Positions 1-18,088 are shown, numbered from the stretch's first letter. The stretch: 64,000 bases of DNA from an archaeon (GCA_020057295.1 JAGVGF010000002.1:160001-224000); one strand, 5' to 3'. Made by a program: numbers and translations. Notes: generated from the letters alone by a model not told the origin.

Positions 1-498
1 AATGCTTCAGGTACTGTATTATTAGGAAATTCAAACAATCAAACATTATATGATTGGAGTCAGGCTTCACCATCTGGAGAGATTTATGCTACTAGATCCG
101 TGTCTACTCCAACATGGGCCAATATTAGGTGTGCAAATGTAACAAATGTCGATGATGAAGATACTGCCTTAGGTGTTAATCAATCTACAGATCAGGACTC
201 TGTGAATAAGACATTCCTAAATACCACTACATTCCCACAATTTTATGTTGGTTCAATTAATATTAATACAACACAATCATGTTATGCTACCGCATTACGT
301 AATACAACAGGCATATCACAAAGCTTTAAGGAAGTACTTTTGCATGATAATGCCATGATGATATACACTGCATTGTTGACACAGGACTCTTTAGGTTTTG
401 ACGGTGCTACTCACGATTTCGAGATGTTAGTAGGAGAAAATGGTCATTTAGGTGACACAAATCCTACACCTTATTACTTTTATTTGGAGCTACAATAA
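1..498 (+). CDS. Secreted surface protein, family A (C-terminal YYFYxEL), 5'-truncated by window edge
   Basis: Frame is open from base 1 (NASGTVLLGNSNNQTLYDWSQASPSGEIYATRS) and aligns with the downstream paralogue (NVTGSLSLDNANSKSIYDW...GEVYVSR); shared F.E.LL.D, GFDG/GYDG and YYFY[LV]EL end. Confidence 0.85.
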   Translation, partial: NASGTVLLGNSNNQTLYDWSQASPSGEIYATRSVSTPTWANIRCANVTNVDDEDTALGVNQSTDQDSVNKTFLNTTTFPQFYVGSININTTQSCYATALRNTTGISQSFKEVLLHDNAMMIYTALLTQDSLGFDGATHDFEMLVGENGHLGDTNPTPYYFYLELQ

Positions 499-1253
499 TG
501 ATATACATAAAAGAAAAATGGATGGAGAATTTTATTAAAATATTGTTTATTATACTAATAGTTGCGTCTATAGTTAGTATATTTGGACAAGTTATCGCAT
601 TACCAAGTGGTCCAACATTAAATTATTTATCTAATACCAGTGCTCCAACAATATCTACAAATAGATCTCAAGATATTAAAGGTACAATTACAACTATTAC
701 TTTAAATCTTGCTCAACAAGATTATAAGTGGAAGGCTTACGTTGGTAATGTTACTGGTAGTTTAAGTTTAGATAATGCTAACAGCAAATCTATCTACGAT
801 TGGGCATTAACAAGTATAACTGGAGAAGTATATGTATCCAGGGCTTCAACAGTTAATTGGAATAATATATCTTGTGTAAATCAGACTGTGATAAATTCCG
901 AGCAAACAGCATTAGGAATTGCATCAAACATCCCAGACAGTATCAATGCTACTTTTAATAATTCAAAACACAAAAATTTTGTCGTGGCTACAGCCAACAT
1001 TACTAATAGTACATGCAGAGCAATAGCTACTTATCTTAATGATACTGCACAAACAGTCAATGAGACAGCATTATTCCAGGAAATTTTATTGAAAGATGAT
1101 ATAACTAATAGCATGGTTTATACTTCCATAATTGAACCAACTAAACCATTAGGATATGATGGTCTAAATAATTATAATTTTCAGTTATTAGTTGCGGAAA
1201 ATGAATCTGCAACAATACCTACAACATATTACTTTTATGTAGAGTTAGGATAA
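498..1253 (+). CDS. Secreted surface protein, family A (C-terminal YYFYVELG)
   Basis: N-terminal hydrophobic signal, Asn/Thr-rich, paralogue of the upstream ORF; TAATG stop/start overlap. Confidence 0.85.
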   Translation: MIYIKEKWMENFIKILFIILIVASIVSIFGQVIALPSGPTLNYLSNTSAPTISTNRSQDIKGTITTITLNLAQQDYKWKAYVGNVTGSLSLDNANSKSIYDWALTSITGEVYVSRASTVNWNNISCVNQTVINSEQTALGIASNIPDSINATFNNSKHKNFVVATANITNSTCRAIATYLNDTAQTVNETALFQEILLKDDITNSMVYTSIIEPTKPLGYDGLNNYNFQLLVAENESATIPTTYYFYVELG

Positions 1254-1254
1254 A

Positions 1255-2184
1255 ATGAAAAAATCGACTAATATACCAATAATCGTAGCATTGTTAATAG
1301 TAGTTGCTATATTATTTTTTGTAGTTCCTACTTCATTTGCTGCAAATATTGTTGGTACAAATTATAAAAATGTAACTGTACGTACTTCTGTAAATATTAC
1401 TAACTCTAATCCTGAAGTCTTAGCATTAGTGGCTTATGATACATCTAATGTTTCATTGAATAATATTACAGTAAATGCTGGCGCGTTGAAATCTATTAGT
1501 TGTAATGCTAGTGTTAGAGATTGGAATGGTTATAATGATATAACTTTAGTATCTGCAACTCTATATCACATTACCAATAATTCAATTGGTCCTAATAGCA
1601 ACAACACTCATTATACTAATTCATCTTGTACATTAAATGCAAGTACAGGAACATATACTGGATGGTATACTTGCACTTTTGATTTATTATACTATGCTAA
1701 CAATGGTACATGGACATGTAATGTTACTGCTAGAGATACTTATAGTAAAAATGGATCATTAACAAATACTACTTATTTGTATCCTGTTTATGCATTAAAT
1801 ATTACTGATGGCATAGATTACGGTCCTGTTGCTGTAGAAACATTTTCAAGTGATATTGGAGCAAACATTACTAACTTTGGTAATATGAATATTAATATCA
1901 CTGTAGAAGGTTATGGTGTTACTCGTGGTGATGGTTTGGCAATGAATTGTACTATTAATGGTAATATCACTGTCGGTAATGAGAAATTTGCTACAAGTGC
2001 AGGAGTAGCTTATGCTTCAAAAAATAATTTAACAAGTTCAGCAGCTCTTATTCCAGGATTGATGATGCCTAAGCAATCTAACGATACGCAAGTGATTAAT
2101 GCTACATACTGGCAATTATATATCCCTCCAAATCCTGCTGGTAACTGTACAGGATTTGTAATATTCAGTGCGGAAGCACCATAA
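1255..2184 (+). CDS. Secreted glycoprotein, family B (putative fibre/pilin subunit; C-terminal WQLYIPP..G.C.G..IFSAEAP)
   Basis: Signal peptide ending SFA, 6 conserved Cys, 22 N-x-S/T sequons counted; paralogues at 12046, 13095 and 15943. Confidence 0.85.
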   Translation: MKKSTNIPIIVALLIVVAILFFVVPTSFAANIVGTNYKNVTVRTSVNITNSNPEVLALVAYDTSNVSLNNITVNAGALKSISCNASVRDWNGYNDITLVSATLYHITNNSIGPNSNNTHYTNSSCTLNASTGTYTGWYTCTFDLLYYANNGTWTCNVTARDTYSKNGSLTNTTYLYPVYALNITDGIDYGPVAVETFSSDIGANITNFGNMNINITVEGYGVTRGDGLAMNCTINGNITVGNEKFATSAGVAYASKNNLTSSAALIPGLMMPKQSNDTQVINATYWQLYIPPNPAGNCTGFVIFSAEAP

Positions 2185-2325
2185 GTTGTAAAACTATATA
2201 CTTTTTTTTCTTATAATTCTATTTATTTTTAATCATATAATACTTTTTGTTTTTAGTGTTTATAGGTTCTATTTCTCATTTATTCTTATTTTTTTTAATT
2301 GTATCTATTAATAGAATTTAAGCAT

Positions 2326-2360
2326 AAAGTAAGTAAAAAAGTAAGTAATTTTATAAGTAA
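2326..2360 (+). promoter_or_regulatory. Direct repeats AAAGTAAGTAA upstream of the AbrB-like gene (candidate operator)
   Basis: AAAGTAAGTAA at 2326-2336 and 2338-2348, plus AAGTAA at 2355-2360, ahead of a TTTAAAAA TATA-like box. Confidence 0.35.
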
Positions 2361-2398
2361 ATAGTTAAATTTAAAAACACGTTAAACTAAGAAATAAG

Positions 2399-2584
2399 AT
2401 GGTCGTACAGTTTAAACGTAAACTTTATCCAAGAGGCGGGAGTTATGAAACAACTATTCCTATACAACTATTATTCTCTTTAGACTTATCAAAAAAACAC
2501 GACGCAATATTCGAATATGATCCTAAATCTAGTAGGTGGTACATCGTATTTAAAGAATCAAAAAAATTCAAAGATAAAAGATAA
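2399..2584 (+). CDS. AbrB/MazE/SpoVT-like DNA-binding protein
   Basis: RKL..RGGSY.TTIP..L...L.L pattern of swapped-hairpin regulators; 61 aa. Confidence 0.65.
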   Translation: MVVQFKRKLYPRGGSYETTIPIQLLFSLDLSKKHDAIFEYDPKSSRWYIVFKESKKFKDKR

Positions 2585-2615
2585 TACTAAAAATTTAATT
2601 AATTAAAAAGATAAA

Positions 2616-3290
2616 ATGAAATATTATCAAAACAAAGTGTTATTAGTATCCGTAATTTTAATAGTTTTAGCGCTATTCATATATTTTGAACGAAACAATT
2701 ATATGAGTGGATTAACAGGCAGTGCAATAACCAATACACAAGTTACAATAATACCAGCTTTGCCAGCTAACTGTTCCTTACATTTAAATCCTGGATGGAA
2801 TTTAGTTTCATTTTATTGCTTAGGTTTATTTACTGATAGGAGTGCTGTTTTAAGTTCTATTGATGGACAGTATACAAAAATATTTTCGTATAATCCCTAT
2901 GATACTAGTGATCCATGGAAAAGTTATAATCCTAATCTTCCTGCAGGTATAGTACAGCAATTGAATAATATGGATAGAATGTCTGGATATTGGATATATA
3001 TCCCTACAGGTGCAGACTTAACTTATGAAGGAGTTAATAAAACTTCATCAACCATAACTATGAAGACCGGATGGAATCTTATAGGATATCCGAGTATTAC
3101 TACTAGAAATATAAATAACACTTTAAACAATATATCTTTTACAATTATACAACGTTATAATACTACTTCAGACACGTGGTTAGTATATATTAATGGTTCA
3201 TCAAATAATACATTAAACACCTTAGATACTTACGTAGGGTATTGGATTAATGTAACTAGTGATCAAAGTTTAATAATTTATAATCCATAA
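2616..3290 (+). CDS. Membrane-anchored surface protein with two GWNL[VI] repeats
   Basis: N-terminal TM; two internal repeats (L.PGWNLVS...GYWI and MKTGWNLIG...GYWI). Confidence 0.8.
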   Translation: MKYYQNKVLLVSVILIVLALFIYFERNNYMSGLTGSAITNTQVTIIPALPANCSLHLNPGWNLVSFYCLGLFTDRSAVLSSIDGQYTKIFSYNPYDTSDPWKSYNPNLPAGIVQQLNNMDRMSGYWIYIPTGADLTYEGVNKTSSTITMKTGWNLIGYPSITTRNINNTLNNISFTIIQRYNTTSDTWLVYINGSSNNTLNTLDTYVGYWINVTSDQSLIIYNP

Positions 3291-3291
3291 A

Positions 3292-4926
3292 ATGTTTAAC
3301 AAAAATTTTGTCATCGGAATATTCTTTTTAATGTTTATGTTAGTTAGTACTGTATATGCTTATCCTTCTCTACCAACAGAGTTTTATGGTCAAATATATG
3401 ATCATAATCTAAATGCTAGTGGTGGCACAGTCACAACGTATATTAACAACACACTTTGTGGAAGTTTTACAATAATAAATTCCGGTTTTTACGGAGTATT
3501 ATCTTGTTTGGCCAAGGATACTGATAATTATAATAGTAGTGGAGGAGTAGATGGTGATAATGTAACTTTTGAGTATAAAGGAGCTCCAGTAACTATCATT
3601 GGTAATAATTCATTTGCATCTGGAGAATTTAAAAGTGTGATAATAAGATATCCTGAAGTGGTTTGTCAAGATACATTTTGTGACGCATTAGAAAATTGTT
3701 CATCATGTCCATTAGATTGTGGACAATGCGCTGGAGGCGGTTCTGGAAGTGGTGGTGGCGGTGGTTCAGGAGGAGCTGGTGGCGGTGGTGGCTCTGGAAG
3801 TTCTGGTGGTGGCGGTGGTAGTGCTGGTGGAGGCGGAGTTGTTAATGGAGGATGTACAGAAAATTGGGCTTGTAAAGATTGGAGCAACTGTTCCATTCTT
3901 GGCATACATAGTAGAAATTGTACTGATGTAGCAAGTTGTGGATCATACACTAATAAACCTAAAGAAGTTGAAGAGTGTTTGTATGAAGGTAATTGTTTTG
4001 ATAATTTAATAAATTGTCACGAAGGTGTATGTGAAGAAGGTGTTGATTGTAACGGTCCTTGTGAGAAGAAATGTGCAGAACAGCAACAACCATTAGGTAA
4101 CATTACTATAAATCTTCCAAAGATAGAATTTCCAAAAAAAGTTTGTGAGAAACATGTAGATTATAGGGATCCAGCATTATTAATATTTATCTTTATAATA
4201 TTGATTGCGATTATTATAAGATATGTTTATACTAATCATATAATTACTAAATGGCGTAAAGATGAAAAAATTACTCCTTTGCAGCGTGCTAGAAAAATTA
4301 AATCTGCTAAGAGAAAGAACTTATTATTTGTAATAACGCTATTTTTCTTAACTATAGTATCATTTCTATACAGTTATTTCTTTTTATTGTGTCCTACAGA
4401 TTTTATTAAGTATTCTTGGTTATTAATAATATTGTTAATACTTATACCTTTAGTGGTGAATACTGTTATGAAGAAGTTTGAATATAGTGCTGTAGAACAT
4501 TTAGATAAAACTAAACGTTTGGATGATATACATTATCAGAGTATATTAAACATGATTGAGTTAGAAAATAATATTTTAGCAGATGAAGAAAATGTTATTG
4601 CAAACAAATTATATGAATTATCAAAAAAGAAAGAGTTTAGAGAAATAATCGAGAGTAATCATACTTTAAAGGAAGTATATAAGAATCTAATAAAATTATA
4701 TACAGATTATAAAGATAAGAAAAACCCTTTTAATATAGAAAAAGACTTTTGTGATGAAATTAATACTTTAGACTTAGATGAACAATTTAAAAAAGATATT
4801 AGTACTCATCCAGAATTAAAACACTTATTTGATAGATTAAAGAAATTGTATGCGCAGTATGAAGAGAAACAAAAATTATACGATAAACTTGATCAAATAG
4901 AACAAGGAAATAAAAATGAAAAATAA
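3292..4926 (+). CDS. Surface protein: signal, Ig-like domain, Cys-rich module, Gly/Ser linker, TSP1-like module, 3 TM, cytoplasmic helical tail
   Basis: P.EFYG motif, CQDTFC..E.C..CP.DC, poly-Gly, CTENWAC.DWSNC..G...R.C, hydrophobic segments. Confidence 0.8.
   Translation: MFNKNFVIGIFFLMFMLVSTVYAYPSLPTEFYGQIYDHNLNASGGTVTTYINNTLCGSFTIINSGFYGVLSCLAKDTDNYNSSGGVDGDNVTFEYKGAPVTIIGNNSFASGEFKSVIIRYPEVVCQDTFCDALENCSSCPLDCGQCAGGGSGSGGGGGSGGAGGGGGSGSSGGGGGSAGGGGVVNGGCTENWACKDWSNCSILGIHSRNCTDVASCGSYTNKPKEVEECLYEGNCFDNLINCHEGVCEEGVDCNGPCEKKCAEQQQPLGNITINLPKIEFPKKVCEKHVDYRDPALLIFIFIILIAIIIRYVYTNHIITKWRKDEKITPLQRARKIKSAKRKNLLFVITLFFLTIVSFLYSYFFLLCPTDFIKYSWLLIILLILIPLVVNTVMKKFEYSAVEHLDKTKRLDDIHYQSILNMIELENNILADEENVIANKLYELSKKKEFREIIESNHTLKEVYKNLIKLYTDYKDKKNPFNIEKDFCDEINTLDLDEQFKKDISTHPELKHLFDRLKKLYAQYEEKQKLYDKLDQIEQGNKNEK
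3733..3837 (+). repeat. Low-complexity GGN codon tract encoding the Gly/Ser linker
   Basis: ggt/ggc/gga runs within the 3292-4926 CDS. Confidence 0.8.
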
Positions 4927-4946
4927 TTTAATATTATTATATCTAT

Positions 4947-6395
4947 TTATTTGATCATTTCTATCTTCATTAAATTAATGTTTCCAGCAACATTGAATGG
5001 TATTCCTGCCGTTATTATAACGAAATCTAACGATTCTACCAATCTCTTATTTTTTACTATTTCTAATGATTTTTCTATCAATTCATCCGTATTTTCCGGG
5101 TAAGATATCAGTATAGGTGTGACCCCCCAAACTAATACTAATTTTCTAAATTCTTTTTCATTAGGTGTTATAGCAATTATTGGTGTTAATGGTCTATGTC
5201 GAGATATCTGTTTTGCAGTATGTCCTGTTGATGTGCATGTTATTATTGCCGCAGCCTCTAAATCTCTTGCTGTGTGGCATACTGCCTTGCTTATGGTGTC
5301 AGTAATTGTAGGCTTATAATCTCTATCATCATCCCTTAGAACTTTTAATGATCTTAATGTATGTTCTGTTTTTCTAGCTATTTTATCCATAATATCTATT
5401 ACTCTTAATGGATGTTTTCCTGATGCTGTCTCTCCGGATAACATTATTGCATCACTGCCATCGAGTATTGCATTTGCAACATCTGTTGCTTCAGCTCTTG
5501 TTGGTCGAGGATTTTTTATCATTGATTCAAGCATTTGCGTTGCTGTAATCACCGGTTTGCCTTTTATGTTACATTTTTTGATTATGCTTTTCTGCACACT
5601 TGGAATATTTTCTATTGGTATTTGTACACCTAAATCTCCGCGTGCAACCATTATTCCATCACTTACATCTATTATTTGATCAATTAATTCTAATGCTTGG
5701 AATGATTCTATTTTAGCAATTACATGTATATGCTCTGCATCGTTATTTGCTAATATTTTTTTAACTTCTATAACATCTTCTGGAGTTTTCACAAATGATT
5801 GTGCTATGAAGTCTATTCCATTTTTTATTCCAAATTCTATATCACTAATATCTTGTTCTGATACTCCTGGTAAATCTACTATAGAACCCGGTATATTAAC
5901 ATTTTTTCTAGTTCCTACTTCTCCACCTATTGATACTATACATTGTGCTTCTGTGCCTTTTATTTCTTCGACCCTTAATTCTACTGTTCCATCAGCGATA
6001 TATATTAATGATCCTTTGCTCACTATTTTTGGTAAATTTTGATATGATACCTGTATGGTTTTTTCATCGCACCATTCAATTTCTCTGGTTGTGACTGTCA
6101 ATAATTCATTATCTTTTAGTATTACCGGCTCTTTGAATTTTCCTACTCTTATCTCCGGGCCTTTTGTGTCTAACATTATTCCTATAGGTATTTCTAGATT
6201 TTCATTTATTTCCTTAATCATATTTATTACTTTTAGATGATCTTCATGCGTACCGTGAGAAAAATTTAATCTTGCTATATTCATACCTTTTTCATACAAT
6301 TTTTCAATCATTTCTTTATTATTAGAGCTAGGTCCTATCGTGCATACAATTTTTGTTTTTCTGTTCTGAAAGTATTTATCCATATTTTCCCTCAT
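4947..6395 (-). CDS. pyk: Pyruvate kinase (start may be the Met at 6383)
   Basis: RKTKIVCTIGP, ARLNFSHG, MLDTKGPEIR, IAKIE, MVARGDLGV, ATQMLESM..NPRPTRAE, DAIMLSGETA. Confidence 0.98.
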   Translation of the reverse strand: MRENMDKYFQNRKTKIVCTIGPSSNNKEMIEKLYEKGMNIARLNFSHGTHEDHLKVINMIKEINENLEIPIGIMLDTKGPEIRVGKFKEPVILKDNELLTVTTREIEWCDEKTIQVSYQNLPKIVSKGSLIYIADGTVELRVEEIKGTEAQCIVSIGGEVGTRKNVNIPGSIVDLPGVSEQDISDIEFGIKNGIDFIAQSFVKTPEDVIEVKKILANNDAEHIHVIAKIESFQALELIDQIIDVSDGIMVARGDLGVQIPIENIPSVQKSIIKKCNIKGKPVITATQMLESMIKNPRPTRAEATDVANAILDGSDAIMLSGETASGKHPLRVIDIMDKIARKTEHTLRSLKVLRDDDRDYKPTITDTISKAVCHTARDLEAAAIITCTSTGHTAKQISRHRPLTPIIAITPNEKEFRKLVLVWGVTPILISYPENTDELIEKSLEIVKNKRLVESLDFVIITAGIPFNVAGNINLMKIEMIK

Positions 6396-6583
6396 CTTCT
6401 TTAATTCTTGTACTTTTGTTTCTCTGTTCTTATGTTTCTATTATCCTTATCTCTGTTTAAATATTTTCCTATTGTTTAGTGGTTTAATTTGCTAATCCGA
6501 AAAATATTTAAGCTTTTGAGCACGGAAAATGATAAATATCATAAAAATCAAATAACATATATACATCAGTAAACTAACTATTC

Positions 6584-6597
6584 TAACATATATGTTA
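6584..6597. promoter_or_regulatory. Perfect palindrome TAACATATATGTTA, candidate RHH operator
   Basis: 14-bp palindrome; related TAACATATAT at 6553-6562 and TAACATATTGTTA at 6698-6710. Confidence 0.45.
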
Positions 6598-6686
6598 TAA
6601 AACAGTAAAGTATTTAAATCATTAGTATCATAAATGTCAATTAGTATAGGATTTCGGATAGTGGTTTATTTCAGTGAGGAATTTTA

Positions 6687-6845
6687 ATGAAGAGAGTTAA
6701 CATATTGTTAGAAGATGAAACACACACCAAAGCCAAGGTGATTGCTGTTCTAAAAGACATGACTCTCAACGAGTACTTCGAGAAAGCTATTCGCGAAGCG
6801 GTTGAAAAAGATCAGGCAATTCTCAACAAGATAAAAACGAAATAA
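6687..6845 (+). CDS. Ribbon-helix-helix DNA-binding microprotein, 52 aa (not in ORF track)
   Basis: MKRVNILLEDETHTKAKVIAVLKDMTLNEYFEKAIREAVEKDQAILNKIKTK; GTGAGG SD; alternating strand then helix-turn-helix pattern of RHH. Confidence 0.8.
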   Translation: MKRVNILLEDETHTKAKVIAVLKDMTLNEYFEKAIREAVEKDQAILNKIKTK

Positions 6846-6913
6846 AAAATATCATAGTTTAAACTATAGAGGGTTGCAAAAAGTCAGTCAAAAGAACGGC
6901 ATACTTAGTTAAA

Positions 6914-9904: not shown

Positions 9905-9950
9905 AATTATTGTGCAAATTTATAGATAAATAAAAATTATTAGAAATCTC

Positions 9951-11786
9951 TTATTCTTTCTTTTCTTCAACAACAGGTGTTTCACTTTTAACTTCATGCG
10001 TGTGTTTATGTTTCCTGCTGTATAATGATTGTCCACATTTAGCGCATTTTCTTCTGAGCCTTGAATTTTTATGTCCGCAATGTGGACACTTTCTTCTGCC
10101 GAATATTATTAATAGTAATAGTATTATTATTAATATTATCAATCCGTATGTTACATAATCAAAGCTCACTAATTTGAATGCGTATTCTCCATACACTGTT
10201 TTTATTAGAGCGTTCTCTCTTTGTCCATAATATCCTTTAACTTTTACCAAAGGATTATTTTGTATATCAGCATCACTCATTACTACTTCTACAGGTATCT
10301 TTGTCTTGTCTCCTATTTTTAGTAATACTGCTTCCGGTGATGATATTGTGATATATTCTCCATTGATATATAGATCTAGTATTTCTAAACTAACATAACT
10401 ATCTACTGTGCCTATATTTTGAATTGTGATTATGAATTTACCTTTACCCTTATCATATGAGACATCTGTTATATTTATTCTGGAATCATCTAATATTTCT
10501 ACATTCTCAACCGATATATCTCCTTCTAAAACGTTTTCTAGTGATCTTTTACCTTCACCAAATAATGTATATATTTTAGCTGTAATATTTTCTCCTTCTA
10601 GAACTACATCATAAGTTATTGTTTTATACTGGTTCTTATCTATAAATATTGGATCTTGATCTCCAACAACCTTATTTTGTCCATTAGCGGTTATGGTTAT
10701 AGTTCCTTTTAAATATGCTCCCAGATTTGCCTTGTTCTTATATGTTACCCATAAAGAATTTGTGGCTTTATTATACATTATACTATATATTCCTAAGTCT
10801 ACTGCATATCTCGGCATCTGAAATTTATCTAAGTCTTCTACTGTTGCTATTGGTCCAGTAGGCGTTCTTGAACCTTGTGCAAATTTCACGAATACACTTA
10901 ATCCTAACTGTCTTCTTATAGCCGTTGCAGAATTTATTAGTTCGTTTCCTATTAATACTGCTACTTGAAAATCTGATGCTTTAATATATTCTTGTACTTG
11001 AGATGGTACTGTTCCTCTACCAATAAATAATACAGGATCATCTCCCGACATTATGCTCGATTCTATGAATTCTCCATTGCTCATTAATATTTGCTTAGAG
11101 TTTCTGACTTTTTGATATAATTTTACTATTTCTATATTATTATCAAATCTATCTCCCTTATTTATTGTTTCTGGATTATATTTTGCGAGTCTCGTTTTTA
11201 CAGCTTCATCTACCTGTCCAAGTATTATTAATTTACTAGGTTTTGCATCTGTTAAGAATGTATCTACAGCTCCTATGTTTCGTTCACTAGTAAATATTAC
11301 ATAATACTTATCTATAACAGCATATGATGCTGCTGATAATGCATTATATCCGTAAGCATCATCTACTATAATATATTTAGTTACTATTTTATCTTTGTTT
11401 AATCTTTTTGCCAGGTCTAAATTTGCCGTGTTTGTAACTATCTCTTCTACATTAGTATATCCTTGAGCATCCATTACACTTTTATAATTTATGACATAGG
11501 GTTGTGATCTTGATGATACTATTAACGTTCCGTTAGCTTCTTTTGGTATAGAATATAGTAGTATTGTTCCATGCCTAGAACTTGTTAGAAACAAGCCTGG
11601 TTTCTTATCAATCAGACTAGCATATAACGTTGCAGAGTATACATCTTTCCAATCTGCAGAATTTGAAACAACTTTTTCTAAAGCTAAACTTGATGGAATA
11701 CATATCAATATCATAAGAACTATTATAACTAATGATGTTTTGTTAATAAAACTATTTTTAGACGTATTACCAAAAGTATTATTCAT
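9951..11786 (-). CDS. Surface protein with cell-wall-binding-repeat-2-like N-terminus, Ig/CARDB-like domains, TM and cytoplasmic zinc ribbon
   Basis: LIILGQVDEAV, I.KGDRFDNN, VLIGNELIN; I.N.G motifs; TM followed by CPHCG..N....CAKCG. Confidence 0.65.
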   Translation of the reverse strand: MNNTFGNTSKNSFINKTSLVIIVLMILICIPSSLALEKVVSNSADWKDVYSATLYASLIDKKPGLFLTSSRHGTILLYSIPKEANGTLIVSSRSQPYVINYKSVMDAQGYTNVEEIVTNTANLDLAKRLNKDKIVTKYIIVDDAYGYNALSAASYAVIDKYYVIFTSERNIGAVDTFLTDAKPSKLIILGQVDEAVKTRLAKYNPETINKGDRFDNNIEIVKLYQKVRNSKQILMSNGEFIESSIMSGDDPVLFIGRGTVPSQVQEYIKASDFQVAVLIGNELINSATAIRRQLGLSVFVKFAQGSRTPTGPIATVEDLDKFQMPRYAVDLGIYSIMYNKATNSLWVTYKNKANLGAYLKGTITITANGQNKVVGDQDPIFIDKNQYKTITYDVVLEGENITAKIYTLFGEGKRSLENVLEGDISVENVEILDDSRINITDVSYDKGKGKFIITIQNIGTVDSYVSLEILDLYINGEYITISSPEAVLLKIGDKTKIPVEVVMSDADIQNNPLVKVKGYYGQRENALIKTVYGEYAFKLVSFDYVTYGLIILIIILLLLIIFGRRKCPHCGHKNSRLRRKCAKCGQSLYSRKHKHTHEVKSETPVVEEKKE

Positions 11787-11896
11787 TCACCCACCAGATT
11801 AAAATATACGCTCAATTAGTATTTAAATGTTATGTTATTTTTTGTGATTTAATAAATGATATTTTGTGCTTAAATTTGAGTTCTATGTTATGCGTA

Positions 11897-11947
11897 TTTT
11901 GTGCTTGGATGAGCACAAAAACAGAATTAATGCGAAACATTTATATA
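11897..11947 (+). promoter_or_regulatory. Inverted repeat TTTTGTGCT-N6-AGCACAAAA plus BRE/TATA (CGAAACATTTATATA) upstream of the family-B cluster
   Basis: 9-bp arms at 11897-11905 and 11912-11920; the 15-mer at 11933-11947 is identical to 54716-54730. Confidence 0.55.
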
Positions 11948-12045
11948 GCCGTATACATATTTGTATATTGATTTGGTATTTTGATACACAGGAGCGTGTA
12001 CCCATTTATGATTTCATATAAACTACAATAAATTTAAACAAAAAA

Positions 12046-12978
12046 ATGATTAAATCAAATAGTATCCTATTAGTGATATTGACATTTCTACTTGTTGGTT
12101 CTATATTAACCATTCTGCCTGTATCCTTTGCTGCAAATATTGTTGGTGGTAATTATAAGAATATTACAGTCCATACTTCTGTTAACATTAGTAATTCTAA
12201 TCCTGAAGTTTTAGCAATGATAGTATATGATACAACTAATGTTTCCTTGAACAATCTCACTCTTAATGCGGGTGCAACAAAATCTATTACATGTAATGCT
12301 AGTGTTAGAGACTGGAATGGATTTAATGATATTGTTAAAGTAAATGCAACATTGTGGCATGAAGCAACATCAACATATAATGCCAGTAATGATAATAGTT
12401 CGCATTATACTAACACTTCATGCATTCTAAATTATAGCACAGGAACGTATACTGGTGTTTATACATGTACCTTTGACACAATGTATTATTCAAACAATGG
12501 TACGTGGATATGTAATGTTACAACTACTGATAATTATAATGCTACAGGATCACTAACGAATACAACATATATTTATCCATTGTACGCTTTAAACATTACT
12601 GATGGAATTGATTATGGTAATGTTCCTGTTGAAGGAATGTCAAACGATATTCAAGCTAACATAACTAATTTTGGTAACATGGGAATCAACATTAGTGTAG
12701 AAGGATATGCTATTACTAGAGGTGATGGTCTGGCAATGAATTGCAGCATTTTTGGTAATATTCCTGTAAATTATGAAAAATTCGCTCTGGATAATAACAC
12801 TGTTTATGCTTCGAAGAATACATTAACCACTACTCCCGGAATGATTCCTGGATTGACAATGCCAAAACAAATTAATAGTACATTGATACTTAATTCAACA
12901 TATTGGCAATTATACATTCCACCAAATCCAGCAGGTAATTGTTCAGGATTCATAATATTCAGTGCAGAAGCACCATAA
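12046..12978 (+). CDS. Secreted glycoprotein, family B (putative fibre subunit)
   Basis: Close paralogue of 1255-2184 (AANIVG.NYKN.TV.TSVNI.NSNPEV ... IFSAEAP). Confidence 0.88.
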   Translation: MIKSNSILLVILTFLLVGSILTILPVSFAANIVGGNYKNITVHTSVNISNSNPEVLAMIVYDTTNVSLNNLTLNAGATKSITCNASVRDWNGFNDIVKVNATLWHEATSTYNASNDNSSHYTNTSCILNYSTGTYTGVYTCTFDTMYYSNNGTWICNVTTTDNYNATGSLTNTTYIYPLYALNITDGIDYGNVPVEGMSNDIQANITNFGNMGINISVEGYAITRGDGLAMNCSIFGNIPVNYEKFALDNNTVYASKNTLTTTPGMIPGLTMPKQINSTLILNSTYWQLYIPPNPAGNCSGFIIFSAEAP

Positions 12979-13094
12979 ACTTTTCTAAATTTTTTTATTT
13001 TTTTTAATTAATATTCTTATATTTTAGGAAACTATAAAAATAGGTATTCTCAAGTAAGTGTTATTTCAGTAGTTTGATCGCTAAGGGTGGGTGT

Positions 13095-15830
13095 TTGAAG
13101 AAATTATTTTATAAAAAAGTACTATTTATGTTGTGCTTGTTTGTATTATCATTAATTATTCTTGATACTGTTATTGCTGTAGATGGATTTGTAGCATATA
13201 GATCAAATACTGGAGTAAGTACGACTAGTTCTCCTAAAATTCGTTATTGGAATAATACTGCGAATGCAGGGAATGGTTCTTGGAGTGCTGAAATTGAACT
13301 TGCAAGTGCAGGCAGCCCTGTAAGATTTGTTGTATTAAAGCAATCACCTGTCGATTCTAAAATCGTTCTTGTAACATCAAGCGATGATGGAAATATGGAT
13401 GGATATATTTGCATGAAAAATTGTGATAATGCGAGTTATTGGGATTATACTTCTAATATCGGAACTGTCAGTTTGGTTTCTTCTCAAAGAGGATTTGACA
13501 TTGCGTTCGAATCCAATAGCGGTGATGCACTGCTCGTGTATGGAATTGTGAGTGCAAATGCCGCGCAAGATTTAGCATTCCAAGAGTTGCCTGTTTCAAC
13601 AACAAGTTTTAACGGATTAACGGAACAATATATTAATGATGGAGGACATGCTACTGATCTTGTATATATGTGGATAGGGATGGATAATAATCCATTGACA
13701 ACATCTAATGAAATAATTATTGCAGCATTCGATGATACAAATAATGATTATAATGCATGGGTATGGAGCGGTTCAGCATTTGGAGCGTTAAATGCTATCA
13801 CAACAGGAGCTACAGGAACATCAAATAGAGAGGCTCATGCTGTGAGATATGCTGCGGATGGAAGCAAAGGAATGGTTGTAAGCGGTACTGGTGGAGCTGG
13901 AGCGATAAATTCTGAGTATTGGAGTGCAGGCGCTTGGACCGTTGTTGCAGCTATAGATGAAGATGCAGGTGATGGAGCTGCAGATGTTCAATGGCTTAGT
14001 TTGAAAGCAGATCCGTCAACAGATGATTTGCAACTCGTTTTTCAGGCAAGCACTTCAGACTTGGGAACCGCGTACTGGAATGGTGGACCTACATGGGCTG
14101 TAACTTCGAACATTGACACAGGAGTTGATGTTGCAACGGCACGAACTGCAGATTTTTCATGGAATCCTACTGGAAGTACCGGACAATTAGTTTGGGATAC
14201 TGATGGTGCTGGAACAACATTAAGTCAAAGAACCTGTGCTCCGCAATGTACTGCTGCAGGATTAACTGTTTCAACATATGCTGGAACTGGTGCATGGGTA
14301 ACTTTATTTAGAAATCCCACTACTGAACTCGTAAAATTTTTAGGATTTAGATTAAACAATGCATTCGATATAGGATCGTTCTGGTATAATGGAACTGGAG
14401 CCCTTAATTATACTAATTATGCAGACAATGTGATAACAGGAGACACGACAGTTACAACATTCGAATCGTATTTCTTTGATTATAGAAGAGATGTTCGTCC
14501 ACCCGGATTAACAATTATCACGCCTAATCAGAGTAATATACTTCAATGGCAAAATTATATTTATTTTAATATGTCATCGAATGAGTATTTATCAATTGCA
14601 ATCCTTGATTTTAATGGAACAAATTATACTATGAATATGTCAACAGATATGAATTGGTATTATAATCTGACGAGCTTGAACGAAGGTTTGTATTCGTACA
14701 AAATTTATGGAATTGATCTGGCTAATAATACTAATGTTACGCCAACTTGGAATATCACTATAAATTTTCCACCGAATATAACTTTAATTAATCCTCCTAA
14801 TAATACGTTAAATATTACGACTGGGAATATTACTTTTTATTATAATGTTACTGACACTTTAAATAATGTTAGTACTTGTTCTTTAATTATTGATGGACTC
14901 TTTGGTGTCGTTAATACAACAACCAGTCCTGTTAATGAAACGACTACACTAAATTTTACGTACTTATTAACTAATGGTCAACACAATTGGAGTATATGGT
15001 GTAATGATACAAACAATTTTAACAGCACATCAGAAATGAGAAATATTACTATAGCTCTTGATCCTATTATATTATCGATGGATATAACAGATAATCTTTT
15101 ACCTTCAGGCGAAGTAATACTTAATGCTGGGTCAACTAGATTTGTGAATTGTACTATAATAGCTAGCGATCCACAAGGTACTGGAAATATTGCTAATGCC
15201 ACGGCAATGTTCTATTATTATTTAAACAAATCTAATGATCCAGATGATAATTGGGTACATTATACTAACACTTCATGCGTTGTTGCAAATATTACGTTGC
15301 AGAACAAAACTTTTAGTTGTGGTTTTTATCCATGGTATTATGCTAATAATGGTACATGGTATTGTAACGCTACTATAACAAATAATGATTCTTTATCAGC
15401 ATCTAATAATACTTCAACAATTATACAGTCTTTATATGCTTTGAACGTTACAGATGGTATTGATTTTGGTAATGTGGAATCTGAAGTTTCCTCGCTAAAT
15501 GTTACAGCAAATATTACTAACATTGGCAACATGGCAGTAAATATAACAATACAAGGATATGCTTTAGCTATTGGTGATAATACAGGAATGAACTGCAGTG
15601 ATAATACTAATATCACAATTACTCGAATAAAATTTTCTAAAATTACTACTGACGATTACACGACTAAAACCTCTTTAACTGGCAGTGTTCAAAATTTAAA
15701 TTTACAAATCCCTCGTCAAACAAATTTAACTCAAATGATTAACACTACTTATTGGCAAGTTAATCCAGATCCAGGAATATCAACAAGGATATGCACAGGA
15801 TACGTGATATTTACTGCTGAGGTTCCATAA
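13095..15830 (+). CDS. Large family-B protein with extra N-terminal beta-rich (propeller-like) domain and Ig repeats; putative tip adhesin
   Basis: C-terminal ~250 aa match family B (YANNGTW.CN, YALNVTDGIDFG, YWQV...G.C.GYVIFTAEVP); repeated W..S/G.W motifs at the N-terminus; TTG start after a GGGTGGGTG SD (ORF track start 13074). Confidence 0.8.
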   Translation: MKKLFYKKVLFMLCLFVLSLIILDTVIAVDGFVAYRSNTGVSTTSSPKIRYWNNTANAGNGSWSAEIELASAGSPVRFVVLKQSPVDSKIVLVTSSDDGNMDGYICMKNCDNASYWDYTSNIGTVSLVSSQRGFDIAFESNSGDALLVYGIVSANAAQDLAFQELPVSTTSFNGLTEQYINDGGHATDLVYMWIGMDNNPLTTSNEIIIAAFDDTNNDYNAWVWSGSAFGALNAITTGATGTSNREAHAVRYAADGSKGMVVSGTGGAGAINSEYWSAGAWTVVAAIDEDAGDGAADVQWLSLKADPSTDDLQLVFQASTSDLGTAYWNGGPTWAVTSNIDTGVDVATARTADFSWNPTGSTGQLVWDTDGAGTTLSQRTCAPQCTAAGLTVSTYAGTGAWVTLFRNPTTELVKFLGFRLNNAFDIGSFWYNGTGALNYTNYADNVITGDTTVTTFESYFFDYRRDVRPPGLTIITPNQSNILQWQNYIYFNMSSNEYLSIAILDFNGTNYTMNMSTDMNWYYNLTSLNEGLYSYKIYGIDLANNTNVTPTWNITINFPPNITLINPPNNTLNITTGNITFYYNVTDTLNNVSTCSLIIDGLFGVVNTTTSPVNETTTLNFTYLLTNGQHNWSIWCNDTNNFNSTSEMRNITIALDPIILSMDITDNLLPSGEVILNAGSTRFVNCTIIASDPQGTGNIANATAMFYYYLNKSNDPDDNWVHYTNTSCVVANITLQNKTFSCGFYPWYYANNGTWYCNATITNNDSLSASNNTSTIIQSLYALNVTDGIDFGNVESEVSSLNVTANITNIGNMAVNITIQGYALAIGDNTGMNCSDNTNITITRIKFSKITTDDYTTKTSLTGSVQNLNLQIPRQTNLTQMINTTYWQVNPDPGISTRICTGYVIFTAEVP

Positions 15831-15942
15831 GATAAGATATATTATTATAATATATTTTACCATATTTTAATTTATACAATTTGGTCGTTACAACAGAAAA
15901 TTTATAAAAGCTTAAAGTAGAGTTATATTGGTGGGTGGTATA

Positions 15943-16872
15943 TTGAAAGATACCTCACGGTATGTTTTTATGGTGTTTGTGATAGTTTTGTTGTTTATTA
16001 TAGTATTATTGCCGTCGAGTATTGCTCCAAATATTGTTGGCAGTAATTATAAAAATGTTACTGTGATGACTAAATTAAATATTAGTAATTCTAGACCAGA
16101 AATATTGTCGATGATTGTATATGATGCTACTAATTCTTCATTATTTAATATTACTGTAAATGCAGGCGCATTTAAAACTATAAGTTGTAATGCTAGCGTT
16201 AGAGACTGGAACGGATTCAGTGATATAACTAATGTTAATGCAACGTTATATCATATTACTAATAATTCCATCGGTCCCGACAATAACAATACACATTATA
16301 CTAACACTTCATGTAATCTGAATGCTAGCACAGGAACGTATACGGGATGGTATGTTTGTAATTTCGATGTTATATATTATGCTAATAATGGTACATGGAA
16401 TTGTAATGTTACTTTAAAGGATACAAAAAATTCTACAGGATCACTCTATAATTCAACTTTCTTGTATGGTGTTTATGCACTGAACATCACTGACGGTATA
16501 GATTATGGCAGTTTGTTAACTGGCGATTTTTCTAATAATCTTACAGCCAACATAACTAATTTTGGTAATATGGGAATTAATGTTAGTGTAGAAGGATACG
16601 CTTTTACTAGAGGTGATGGTCTGGCAATGAATTGTAGTACTAATGGTAATATAACTGTTGGTAACGAAAAATTCTCTACATCTCAAGTAGATTATGCTTC
16701 TAAAATTGCGCTAACTAGTTCTCCGGCACTGATTCCTGGATTGACAATCTCAAAACAAATCAACGATACAGTTGTTGTTAATACTACTTATTGGCAATTA
16801 TATGTTGATTCAACAAATGTTCCAGCAGGAATATGTACTGGATTTATAATATTTAGTGCAGAGGCACCTTAG
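15943..16872 (+). CDS. Secreted glycoprotein, family B
   Basis: Paralogue ending IFSAEAP; TTG start after a GGTGGGTGG SD (ORF track start 15928). Confidence 0.85.
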   Translation: MKDTSRYVFMVFVIVLLFIIVLLPSSIAPNIVGSNYKNVTVMTKLNISNSRPEILSMIVYDATNSSLFNITVNAGAFKTISCNASVRDWNGFSDITNVNATLYHITNNSIGPDNNNTHYTNTSCNLNASTGTYTGWYVCNFDVIYYANNGTWNCNVTLKDTKNSTGSLYNSTFLYGVYALNITDGIDYGSLLTGDFSNNLTANITNFGNMGINVSVEGYAFTRGDGLAMNCSTNGNITVGNEKFSTSQVDYASKIALTSSPALIPGLTISKQINDTVVVNTTYWQLYVDSTNVPAGICTGFIIFSAEAP

Positions 16873-16873
16873 A

Positions 16874-18088
16874 ATGAATATTATTAAAAAAAATATTTAT
16901 ATTATATTAACATTAAGTTTTGTTCTATGTCTATTATTGGTTGGTGTTGTTAATGCTGTAGGTATTTCTGTAACTAAAGGAGAAATAATTTTTGGCAATG
17001 TTTTAAAAGATGGTTATGCTGAAGATACATTTTTTGTATCTACTGATGCGCCATTTGACGTTCCTTTATCTTATGAATTAGGTGGCGATATTAAGAAATG
17101 GGTTACTATAGATCCTGATCTTAATGATCCGAACATAACAGTAACTGTTAATAATACTAAATATCAACCTATTAGAGTAGTTATTACTCCTCCAGCAGAT
17201 ACGCCTATTGGTGATTACACAGGTTTTATCAGAATAATTACTGGGGCAATAAATAAACCTGGAGGACAATATGGTACTAATCTTCAGGCAGCGTTTCTTG
17301 TTAGAATAAGAATTAGTGTTACAGGTACAGAATATCTTTCTTGCAGTGCTGGAGGTATAATTATTAGAGATACTGAAGTTGGTATGCCTCTAGAGTATTA
17401 TATGTCAGTTAGTAATAGTGGAAATATACGTGTTCGTCCGAATGCTACTGTTGATATTTGGAATCAGGATCAGACAAAATTATTAACAACAAAACAATTG
17501 TTATTTAATGATGTTGAGGTTTTACCGACAACTTCTAAAGCATTTACTAACAAATTTGGTGCAGATCTTCGTGTAGGACAATACTGGGGATACGCTACAG
17601 TATATCCTTGTGAAACTACACAATTAGTAACGTTCAATGTCTATGAAAAGGGTGGAATAGTAGATAATGGTGACTTTATTAGAATTGATAATCCTTCATG
17701 GGCAAAAATTGGTGATGTTTTACCAATAGCAGCAGTGTTCAAAAATCTTGGTACACGTACGGTTAGCGCAAAATTCAAAGGAGTCATAACTTCTGATAAT
17801 AGGATTATTGAAACTATAGACACCGAATTTTATGATGTTGCACCAGGAGAAATTAGCACTATACAAACATATTTTACACCTAAAAAATTAGGACAATACA
17901 TTATTACTGGTAGAATATTATATAATAATAAGTTAAGTTTTGAAAAAAGCTCTGTCATAACTGTTAATGAAGGTGTAGAATCACAATTTAGTTGGATATA
18001 TATTTTGATACTAATAATTATAATAATAGTTATATTACTATTGTTAATACGTATTAGAAAAAAGAAACATAAAATTAATAGATTATAA
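16874..18088 (+). CDS. Membrane-anchored multi-Ig protein, DUF916/DUF3324 (WxL-interacting)/PapD-like; putative assembly chaperone or anchor
   Basis: Signal; ITPPADTPIGDYTGFI; VSNSGNIRVRP; FKNLG; C-terminal TM plus RKKKHK; ATG 1 nt after the family-B stop. Confidence 0.65.
   Translation: MNIIKKNIYIILTLSFVLCLLLVGVVNAVGISVTKGEIIFGNVLKDGYAEDTFFVSTDAPFDVPLSYELGGDIKKWVTIDPDLNDPNITVTVNNTKYQPIRVVITPPADTPIGDYTGFIRIITGAINKPGGQYGTNLQAAFLVRIRISVTGTEYLSCSAGGIIIRDTEVGMPLEYYMSVSNSGNIRVRPNATVDIWNQDQTKLLTTKQLLFNDVEVLPTTSKAFTNKFGADLRVGQYWGYATVYPCETTQLVTFNVYEKGGIVDNGDFIRIDNPSWAKIGDVLPIAAVFKNLGTRTVSAKFKGVITSDNRIIETIDTEFYDVAPGEISTIQTYFTPKKLGQYIITGRILYNNKLSFEKSSVITVNEGVESQFSWIYILILIIIIIVILLLLIRIRKKKHKINRL

Follow-up and report, generated by a model that had tools for sequence, protein, structure and literature searches.

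Little is known about the means by which DPANN archaea cling to their hosts, and Woesearchaeota are uncultured. TasA/CalY, archaeal bundling pili, and chaperone-usher pilins polymerize when an N-terminal strand completes the beta-sandwich of a neighboring subunit, and the 64,000-nucleotide stretch of archaeal DNA analyzed here (the window) raises the question of whether its cluster of secreted proteins could build a fiber in a comparable way. The original prediction, made from the DNA alone, proposed a fiber with a shaft, a tip, and a membrane partner. Insertion of a strand in trans, a strand-less candidate for the tip, and a conserved membrane-anchored partner all emerged from our analysis, but the proposed kinship to TasA and to DUF916 proteins did not. 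With a probability of roughly 0.55, drawn from structure models and comparative genomics, the secreted family B and the membrane-anchored family C form a head-to-tail strand-exchange fiber bearing a tip adhesin.

We found that the four predicted family B paralogues share a 260-residue module, with open reading frames called from 1255, 12046, 13074, and 15928 (Table 1). The 1255 paralogue is 68, 68, and 39% identical to the other three, and E-values between paralogues of this genome range from 5e-137 to 6e-49, a similarity far above chance. Two of the originally given starts needed revision although the genes themselves stood: 13095 is a later in-frame start within the frame 13074-15830, and the frame placed at 15943 begins at 15928, the former position fitting the 309-aa database call P0006. 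Six cysteines are invariant in all four paralogues and in a 51-sequence alignment (C83, C126, C141, C156, C233, and C299), the motifs of the C-terminal domain were recovered as quoted (YALNITDGIDYG, ANITNFGNMGINISVEGY, and YWQLYIPPNPAGNCSGFIIFSAEAP), and the three short forms carry the strands NVTVRTSVNIT, NITVHTSVNIS, and NVTVMTKLNIS near their N-termini.

Table 1. Coordinates of the family A, B, and C genes, conserved neighbors, and predicted interface segments, counted from the first letter of the window.
Feature	Coordinates	Strand	Description
Family A gene, 3' part	1..498	+	Start upstream of window, L005:14782
Family A paralogue, 251 aa	498..1253	+	Second gene of A-A-B cassette
Family B short subunit B1, 309 aa	1255..2184	+	Signal, N-terminal strand, two Ig-like domains
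B1 N-terminal strand	1360..1401	+	Residues 36-49
Conserved neighbor, 224 aa	2616..3290	+	N-terminal hydrophobic segment, beta-rich body
Conserved neighbor, 544 aa	3292..4926	+	Signal, Cys-/Gly-rich exported part, hydrophobic segments, charged C-terminal tail
Conserved neighbor, 996 aa	6914..9904	+	Large exported beta-rich part, hydrophobic segment around residue 800, tail of roughly 180 aa
Conserved neighbor, 611 aa	9951..11786	-	Exported part, hydrophobic segment, weak zinc-ribbon match
Family B short subunit B2, 310 aa	12046..12978	+	Protein used for modeling
Predicted donor strand of B2	12151..12192	+	Residues 36-49, NYKNITVHTSVNIS
Predicted acceptor edge 1 of B2	12580..12624	+	Residues 179-193, LYALNITDGIDYGNV, first strand of C-terminal domain
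Predicted acceptor edge 2 of B2	12937..12966	+	Residues 298-307, NCSGFIIFSA, C-terminal strand
Family B long paralogue, 918 aa	13074..15830	+	Candidate tip adhesin; signal, payload, C-terminal B module
Family B short subunit B3, 314 aa	15928..16872	+	Strand at residues 40-53
Family C, 410 aa	16856..18088	+	Probable start 16874; candidate membrane-anchored chaperone or base

As originally read from the sequence, the family B proteins bear Sec-type signals and lack a membrane anchor, their C-termini being a beta-strand with no hydrophobic segment there. The sequence does not read as a type IV pilin or archaeal class III signal, which is cut ahead of a hydrophobic helix retained in the mature pilin: an ordinary n-h-c signal is followed by the conserved strand, and residues 2-23 form the only helix in the model of B2. 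Proline occupies position 30 in 53% of aligned family B sequences, which leaves the signal cleavage site, and hence the mature N-terminus, uncertain. Sequons are dense in family B (7.0-7.1 per 100 aa versus 0.7 in family C), as would fit an exposed fiber subunit and a membrane-proximal helper, respectively. In our best explanation, family B consists of subunits that leave the cell through Sec, fold into two Ig-like beta-sandwiches in tandem, and, judging by sequon density, are heavily N-glycosylated. None of the four paralogues matched Pfam, neither family B nor family C had a significant match in NCBIfam, and all database matches of the two families with a source name were called "hypothetical protein".

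The AF2 model of the B2 monomer (pLDDT 89.9) contains two beta-sandwich domains (residues 54-176 and 180-310) that look complete, and residues 27-52 are of low confidence and without secondary structure, so that the strand was not placed in cis. When three copies of residues 30-310 were predicted as a complex, using a self-built alignment and a set-up that differs from the tool's calibration, the ipSAE values were 0.46, 0.60, and 0.59 (median 0.59, versus 0.00 for the best of three unrelated control partners); in that calibration, 20 of 30 proteins with a solved homo-pair structure attain the score mark, as does 1 of 23 solved as a single chain. Contact agreement between runs was at least 66% and partner pLDDT at least 86. 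The expected insertion of the N-terminal strand in trans was thus reproduced in the multi-copy model, where one copy's strand sits between the first and last strands of its neighbor's C-terminal domain, antiparallel to the last, with a register running from residue 307 paired with 37-39 through 302 paired with 41-42. The modeled interface involves residues 30-31 and 36-47 on the donor side and 72, 74-76, 179-193, 199, 202, 204, 209-210, 230-231, 244, 287, 289, and 298-307 on the acceptor side. The scored copy's own groove is not among the occupied sites, which fits an open chain.

Conservation across the family follows this predicted interface. Mean column entropy was 0.56 for acceptor and 0.86 for donor positions, compared to 1.28 for the remainder, and 0 of 280 circular shifts of the mask gave an interface entropy as low, although a single alignment fed both the complex model and this test and the two lines are not fully independent. 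No motifs of the protein are better conserved than the two acceptor edges. Within the donor strand, the alignment shows positions 40, 42, 44, 46, and 48, which are predicted to point inward in B2, to be conserved and 43 and 45 to be variable, and the B2 sequons N39-x-T41 and N47-x-S49 lie on the opposite face. In silico, these models and comparisons support the donor-strand reading of family B.

We then considered the 918-aa paralogue, whose N-terminal payload of about 620 aa consists of Ig-like repeats plus another region and has a weak Big_7 match. It was correctly described as lacking the strand: its match begins at query residue 52 and the strand pattern is absent. Searches returned 1494 family B representatives (50% identity) at E<=1e-3, and among the best 150 of these, 76 are at least 400 aa long, the longest reaching 4139 aa. 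In this same subset the module lies within 10 residues of the C-terminus in all 76 long forms, and the strand pattern was recognized in 44 of the 53 short forms that have a signal, versus 4 of 76 long forms. By sequence, the proposed role of the long paralogue as a tip subunit fits this pattern, with a C-terminal module and a missing strand. Genomes usually carry two or three short B genes.

The membrane-anchored gene begins, as predicted, 1 nt past the last subunit, with its probable ATG at 16874 and the preceding stop ending at 16872; the database call P0121 gives a protein of 404 aa. The family C protein comprises a signal, three Ig-like domains, a C-terminal transmembrane helix (residues 380-409), and a basic tail, with three N-glycosylation sequons. 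This architecture agrees with the label "DUF916-like", but the sequence does not: PF06030 (DUF916) and PF11797 (DUF3324) matched neither this protein nor any of 51 members nor anything genome-wide. The best Foldseek matches of family C are Hydin/ASH-type strings of Ig domains rather than FimC or PapD, and its 50 best include no chaperone of a chaperone-usher system. A cluster from CPR bacteria ranks eighth among its language-model look-alikes (score 0.95). By analogy with known pili, family C may act as a chaperone or anchor for family B.

Of 121 genomes sampled from the archaeon's order, 26 gave a family B match, as did 41 of 301 in a larger sample. Its pairing with the anchored gene held across genomes, with family C matched at E<1e-19 in 24 of the 26 genomes having family B, usually adjacent to it; in 12 genomes, including this one, the C gene immediately follows a B gene of the same orientation. 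Five genomes carry family C at this threshold with no B match. The gene cluster exceeds its earlier frame, extending 15 kb or more beyond the window's upstream edge, and families of the order share a conserved cluster of 30-50 kb that encodes exported and membrane proteins, the 611-aa neighbor being the best conserved (42-48% identity across families). A-A-B cassettes recur within it; family A, likewise secreted, is a further set of paralogues (238-261 aa, ending YYFYLEL) whose module is also found at the C-terminus of a protein longer than 2400 aa. Beside the B and C genes, no component resembling an usher or an ATPase was recognized.

Searches for relatives among known fibers gave resemblances of fold. 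For family B, Foldseek ranks pilins from the tips and shafts of chaperone-usher pili highest (CfaE 6k73_C, E 7.6e-6; FimH 1qun_B; the CfaB fusions 3f83 and 3f84), at TM values of 0.24-0.38; the Foldseek matches of B as a whole (TM 0.2-0.38) are weak and generic for tandem Ig domains. Fim, Pap, and CFA/I pili likewise combine shaft pilins that have an N-terminal extension with a tip adhesin that lacks one. Archaea, however, have no outer membrane to hold an usher, and PapD_N (PF00345) had no match in this genome at E<=1. The suggested kinship to TasA, CalY, and AbpA found no backing in Pfam or PDB sequences: a family B profile against PDB chains returned one chance match (E 4.4) and nothing relevant, and the 50 best Foldseek matches include no chain from TasA, Abp, or a cannula. 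TasA/CalY, AbpA/AbpX, and cannulae do share strand donation between beta-sandwich subunits, but the TasA-superfamily filaments are described as chaperone-free and without tip adhesins.

Among known systems, the B/C cluster comes closest to the Elr and Pam pili, both described in 2026 preprints, and to archaeal threads. [quoted passage not shown] The operon also encodes a helper that is built of Ig-like domains and ends in a membrane helix, but no usher; the system is reported in Bacillota only (Sleutel et al., bioRxiv 10.64898/2026.10.17.759780). The predicted B/C fiber would share each of these features. Unlike Elr as there described, the system has an archaeal host, no LPxTG or sortase base, two Ig-like domains in B, and three rather than two in the helper; sequence kinship is lacking, since the WxL (PF13731, unmatched genome-wide at E<=10), DUF916, and DUF3324 models fail, and only a language-model look-alike of family C, at rank 30 (score 0.90), hints at a relationship. 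Pam pili of the ultrasmall, episymbiont-type CPR bacterium Ca. Mycosynbacter amalyticus have pilins of two Ig-like-fold domains, with cysteines in pairs and an exchanged strand that enters the C-terminal domain; they also have chaperones anchored by a C-terminal helix and a membrane tether, and no trans-envelope machine (Troman et al., PMC13278184). Genes and models of B and C suggest the same subunit plan and anchored partner, but in Pam the donated strand is by description the inter-domain linker, whereas in B it precedes both domains. The thread protein Saci_0406 of Sulfolobus acidocaldarius is Sec-exported, cleaved by signal peptidase I, heavily N-glycosylated, and chained head to tail by N-terminal donor-strand complementation (Gaines et al., PMC9715654). 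Family B resembles it in export, N-glycosylation potential, archaeal host, and, in the model, N-terminal donation; payload-bearing long forms and a conserved membrane-anchored neighbor are specific to the B/C cluster, and the accessible account describes no chaperone-like partner for threads. Our PDB-chain profile search, which we assume covered the thread structure, found no likeness to Saci_0406.

Three other readings of these data must be weighed. The N-terminal segment could be a conserved linker, glycosylation site, or sorting signal and its insertion in trans an artefact of modeling, as predictors of structure readily lay an unpaired strand along the edge of a sheet, the segment holds two conserved sequons, and strand-groove covariation gave no clear support. 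This is improbable given that all three unrelated controls scored 0.00 against 0.59, that conservation alternates between inward and outward positions and peaks at the acceptor edges, and that, among the best 150 of 1494 representatives, 72 of 76 long forms lack the segment.

Alternatively, B proteins may be surface adhesins or coat proteins that do not polymerize, with the strand docking B onto B or C in short oligomers and C serving as a stalk, as in the SlaA/SlaB pair of Sulfolobales. Three rigid Ig-like domains and a C-terminal anchor in a protein tightly linked to B would suit a stalk, as would the few short B genes per genome and the lack of a recognized usher-like or ATPase gene nearby. 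We nonetheless consider this reading unlikely, because the model gives each subunit one donor and one acceptor in an open head-to-tail chain, and because strand-bearing short and strand-less long forms are what a capped polymer predicts and docking alone does not need. Least of all would we expect, alongside the modeling artefact, that families A and B and the neighboring membrane proteins build an S-layer or other two-dimensional envelope lattice in which the strand swap is a lattice contact. The conserved 30-50 kb cluster, recurrent A-A-B cassettes, high glycosylation potential, and an S-layer chain (7ptp_A, rank 32) among the 50 best Foldseek matches of C agree with a lattice, but family B is too patchily distributed among the sampled genomes for an essential wall, long forms of up to 4139 aa are ill-suited as tiles, the B2 model has a single linear contact, and two nearly complete genomes (G019, 96%; G032, 99%) carry B and C with no family A match.

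We therefore return to the strand-exchange fiber. B subunits would probably assemble head to tail, giving a thin fiber without branches, the donor strand of one B (residues 36-48) entering the next B's C-terminal domain between the YALNITDG and GFIIFSA strands and running antiparallel to the latter, which is the topology of donor-strand exchange. Having an acceptor module and no strand, the 918-aa paralogue could occupy a chain end only, where it may display its 620-aa payload as a tip adhesin. We infer that C holds the empty groove of the cell-proximal subunit, which would make it a membrane-anchored chaperone, a base anchor, or both, like ElrE or PamC/PamD/PamR. Attachment to other cells is a plausible use of such a fiber, and its target may be a host.

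A more ambitious and distinctly tentative version makes the system an archaeal counterpart of chaperone-guided donor-strand exchange. Here C would be a fold-completing chaperone as well as an anchor, possibly a very distant relative of DUF916/DUF3324 proteins and Pam chaperones, that primes B; interchangeable adhesins of up to 4139 aa would dock via the universal C-terminal module, family A would form a second, parallel fiber, and the glycosylated fiber would be a host-attachment organelle of Woesearchaeales.

If the strand-exchange fiber is real, its combination with an anchored helper and swappable giant tips would give Woesearchaeota a concrete, testable attachment apparatus. A pilus logic described, to our knowledge, only in 2026 and in Gram-positive and CPR bacteria would then reach archaea, and the archaeal case would suggest that assembly by chaperone and strand exchange, with no usher, is a solution that cells with simple envelopes reach time and again. 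The C-terminal B module would also serve as a practical marker for DPANN adhesins in metagenomes.

Across the entire 1.2-Mb genome, a search returned exactly four members of family B (E 5e-137 to 6e-49), with identities to the 1255-2184 paralogue of 68, 68 and 39% for the other three in gene order. All four carry an ordinary n-h-c signal, six invariant cysteines and a C-terminal end of the form ...G(F/Y)(I/V)IF(S/T)AE(A/V)P without a hydrophobic tail, and open reading frames, alignment and genome search thus agree with the original prediction of four paralogues with Sec-type signals, six cysteines and no membrane anchor. About 10 residues past the signal, the three short forms share an alternating strand (NVTVRTSVNIT, NITVHTSVNIS and NVTVMTKLNIS); the long form aligns with them only from their residue 52 onward, confirming that it lacks this strand, as had been proposed. 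Scanning ten proteins of the region against Pfam and NCBIfam assigned families A, B and C to no significant family, their profiles gave only chance matches to PDB chain sequences, and the named database matches of B and C were all "hypothetical proteins" of Candidatus Woesearchaeota or Nanoarchaeota. Directly after the signal, residues 29-34 of B2 (window 12130-12147) form a conserved A-(P/A)-N-I-V-G motif. Cleavage after A29 is unlikely because position 30 is a proline in 53% of family B sequences; cleavage after G34 is possible, and the mature N-terminus is uncertain.

Features of the surface-protein cluster (L005, the stretch upstream of the window; all other positions refer to the window)
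Feature	Position	Strand	Description
Family B short paralogue (B1)	1255-2184	+	309 aa, reference for identities
Family B short paralogue (B2)	12046-12978	+	310 aa
Family B long paralogue	13074-15830	+	918 aa
Family B short paralogue (B3)	15928-16872	+	314 aa
Family C gene	16856-18088, likely ATG 16874	+	signal, C-terminal hydrophobic helix with basic tail
Family A, six paralogues	L005:9001-16253 and window 1-1253		238-261 aa
Giant protein, Ig-like repeats	L005:1-7356		>2400 aa, open frame 2818 aa
Conserved neighbours	2616-3290, 3292-4926, 6914-9904, 9951-11786(-)		exported or membrane, no known family
Helix-turn-helix genes, small	L005:10964-11500, L005:14148-14780		sigma-70 region 4 / HTH_23-like, and ArsR-like
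Pyruvate kinase	4947-6395	-	PF00224, E 4.5e-127

The AF2 model of the 310-aa B2 (51 homologues in the alignment) was confident (pLDDT 89.9), with a signal helix at residues 2-23 and two beta-sandwich domains, spanning 54-176 and 180-310. The segment 27-52, including the alternating strand, was of low confidence and had no secondary structure, and folding of the strand back into its own subunit was not seen in this monomer model. In the 51-sequence alignment, mean entropy of segment 29-53 was 0.93, versus 1.33 and 1.05 for the folded domains. At positions 40 (V), 42 (V), 44 (T), 46 (V) and 48 (I), the residue is conserved in 84-100% of the aligned sequences; positions 43 and 45 are variable, and the sequons N39-x-T41 and N47-x-T49 lie on the face opposite the conserved positions. 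Judged from the alignment, this alternating conservation is the signature of one buried face.

Three runs of a three-copy prediction of B2 (residues 30-310, own alignment) gave ipSAE values of 0.46, 0.60 and 0.59 (median 0.59, versus 0.00 for the best of three unrelated control partners), exceeding a mark that 20 of 30 proteins with solved homo-pair structures attain, as does 1 of 23 with solved single-chain structures. This prediction differs from that calibration in alignment and copy number. At least 66% of contacts agreed between runs, with a partner pLDDT of at least 86. The N-terminal strand is thereby predicted to insert into a neighbouring subunit, as originally proposed, with residues 30-31 and 36-47 of one copy on the donor side and residues 72, 74-76, 179-193, 199, 202, 204, 209-210, 230-231, 244, 287, 289 and 298-307 on the acceptor side. 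Pairing of 179-183 with 36-40 places the donor strand beside the first strand of the neighbour's C-terminal domain, and the acceptor edges coincide with YALNITDGIDYG and CSGFIIFSA, motifs named in the original prediction. The scored copy's own groove is not among the occupied sites, which makes the model an open chain rather than a closed ring. Column entropy was 0.56 for the acceptor and 0.86 for the donor, compared to 1.28 for the rest of the protein, and none of 280 circular shifts of the interface mask had entropy as low; the interface residues are the most conserved part of the family B protein. The strand is too conserved for mutual-information covariation among 170 short forms (Neff 152), in which the pairs fitting the modelled interface (36 with 75, 76 and 183; 34 with 209; 37 with 185) ranked 110th or lower.

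The membrane-anchored family C gene was found where it had been described, its likely start 1 nt past the stop of the last family B subunit, and its product is modelled as three Ig-like domains followed by a transmembrane helix at 380-409 (pLDDT 93.7). Its earlier label "DUF916-like" is rejected as a statement of homology, given that none of 51 family C members matches DUF916 or DUF3324 and that the DUF916, DUF3324, WxL and PapD_N models match nothing in the genome. Foldseek most closely likened family C to Hydin/ASH-type Ig strings, with generic tandem-Ig matches of low TM-score and no chaperone-usher chaperone among the best 50. The sole hint linking family C to DUF916/DUF3324 is a language-model look-alike at rank 30 (score 0.90), a Bacillota cluster with PF06030 and PF11797 in 98% of its members, which we treat as a lead and not a test; a CPR-bacterial cluster stands at rank 8. 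Queried as a whole two-domain model, B2 likewise found weak, generic tandem-Ig matches with low TM-scores in the PDB, the leading ones being CfaE (the tip adhesin of CFA/I, E 7.6e-6), RbmA, FimH and CfaB fusions. Its best 50 matches included no TasA, Abp or cannula chain. With neither a sequence match in Pfam or the PDB nor a fold match among those 50, the suggested kinship to TasA is not supported and we reject membership of that superfamily; type IV pilin identity is rejected for want of a class III signal.

With a one-protein query, family B was found in 26 of the order's 121 sampled genomes (27 with the profile); across the phylum, 41 of 301 sampled genomes had it (39 of the same order, 2 of the same class). 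Typically there are two or three short genes plus one long. Family C (E<1e-19) occurs in 29 of the 121, including 24 of the 26 family B genomes; G014 (89% complete, partial B only) and G029 (both matches weak) lack it at this threshold, and five genomes (G016, G057, G068, G082 and G120) have it with no family B match. It lies directly 3' of a same-strand family B gene in 12 genomes, the window's included (among them G003, G005 (twice), G019, G032, G042, G047, G061, G084 (twice), G085 and G113), often after the long form. The anticipated co-occurrence of the two families in other genomes therefore holds. G019 (96% complete) and G032 (99% complete) have both B and C with no family A match, and B and C thus look like a self-contained module. 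A stretch of G019 (L028, G019:C4:1841-8120) carries five tandem short family B genes and then family C, a minimal, divergent version of the system.

Upstream of the window, the cluster extends through six family A paralogues, two helix-turn-helix genes, a DUF5752-like gene and the giant protein. In family A paralogues the signal precedes a conserved A-[ILV]-P-x-G-P motif; the proteins end in YYFYLEL and fall into two subtypes alternating in A-A-B cassettes, between which the two helix-turn-helix genes sit, here and at the same positions in other genomes. We found no relative of family A in Pfam, the PDB or named atlas clusters, the language-model atlas giving only archaeal clusters without names. 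It is commoner than B (51 of 121 genomes) and is present in 23 of the 26 genomes with B. The giant protein closes with 190 residues that are a family A module (BLASTP E 3e-4) without an A-type N-terminus. This mirrors the long family B form, so payload-carrying versions may exist in both module families. Comparison by tblastn of 18 cluster proteins with 12 stretches of seven genomes that belong to different families recovered the giant protein, the A-A-B cassettes with regulators, and long B then C as shared parts, along with four membrane or exported neighbours (224, 544, 996 and 611 aa). Two to four of these neighbours lie beside B and C in each of six of the seven genomes, and together they could form an assembly or anchoring platform. 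Sequence identity of the 611-aa neighbour across families is 42-48%, and past a hydrophobic segment this protein shows a zinc-ribbon match too weak for the Pfam cut-off. The pyruvate kinase gene lies mid-cluster on the opposite strand. Sequon density, counted per 100 aa, separates the roles of these proteins: B has 7.0-7.1, the long form 5.0, A 4.8, C 0.7 and the cytoplasmic pyruvate kinase 0.2. A search of sequencing runs yielded one DNA run, whose share of words was 0.20, and no RNA run among the matches listed.

In function, the nearest analogue is the Elr pilus of E. faecalis, described in a preprint as WxL pilins with N-terminal donor strands, tip adhesins whose WxL domain is C-terminal, and ElrE, a DUF916/DUF3324 chaperone anchored in the membrane; the same preprint reports the system as confined to Bacillota (bioRxiv 10.64898/2026.10.17.759780). 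The Pam pili of CPR bacteria rank second; they are reported to combine two-domain Ig-like pilins with chaperones and a tether, both of which carry C-terminal membrane helices (PMC13278184). Archaeal threads are described as Sec-dependent, glycosylated chains joined by N-terminal strand complementation (PMC9715654). Judged by Pfam and NCBIfam models and PDB chain sequences, families A, B and C have no detectable sequence in common with Elr or thread proteins; the B/C system would work like all three kinds of fibre, and we assign it to none of them. Searches of the main-text literature on archaeal, DPANN and Woesearchaeota donor strands, pili and surface proteins turned up no description of the family or of a DPANN donor-strand fibre.

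Models, conservation and family architecture support the predicted donor-strand fibre. Its DUF916 and TasA homologies are not supported. We give the whole scheme a probability of roughly 0.55, placing strand exchange between B subunits above that figure and the role of C below it. Subunits would be exported via Sec with signal cleavage at an uncertain site and N-glycosylated outside the cell. [quoted passage not shown] The B-B contact is the only step with model support; the others we infer from architecture, gene order and two 2026 precedents.

Searching 1.84 billion representatives with the family B profile returned 1494 proteins at E<=1e-3, and 76 of the best 150 were at least 400 aa long (median 647, maximum 4139). 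In all 76 of these long forms, no more than 10 residues separate the end of the module from the C-terminus. A strand pattern composed after data inspection was present in 44 of 53 signal-bearing short forms (the other nine being mostly near variants by eye). It also occurred in 1 of 11 signal-less short entries, probably fragments, and, immediately before the module, in 4 of the 76 long forms. These four proteins (P0228, P0231, P0276 and P0296), with a strand-like motif directly before the C-terminal module, could be integrated into the fibre instead of capping it, a placement proposed in the Elr preprint for one adhesin of E. faecium (bioRxiv 10.64898/2026.10.17.759780). By their sequence architecture, short forms would act as both donor and acceptor and long forms, as a rule, as acceptor only, beneath a variable payload, a division that is exactly what a capped strand-exchange polymer predicts.
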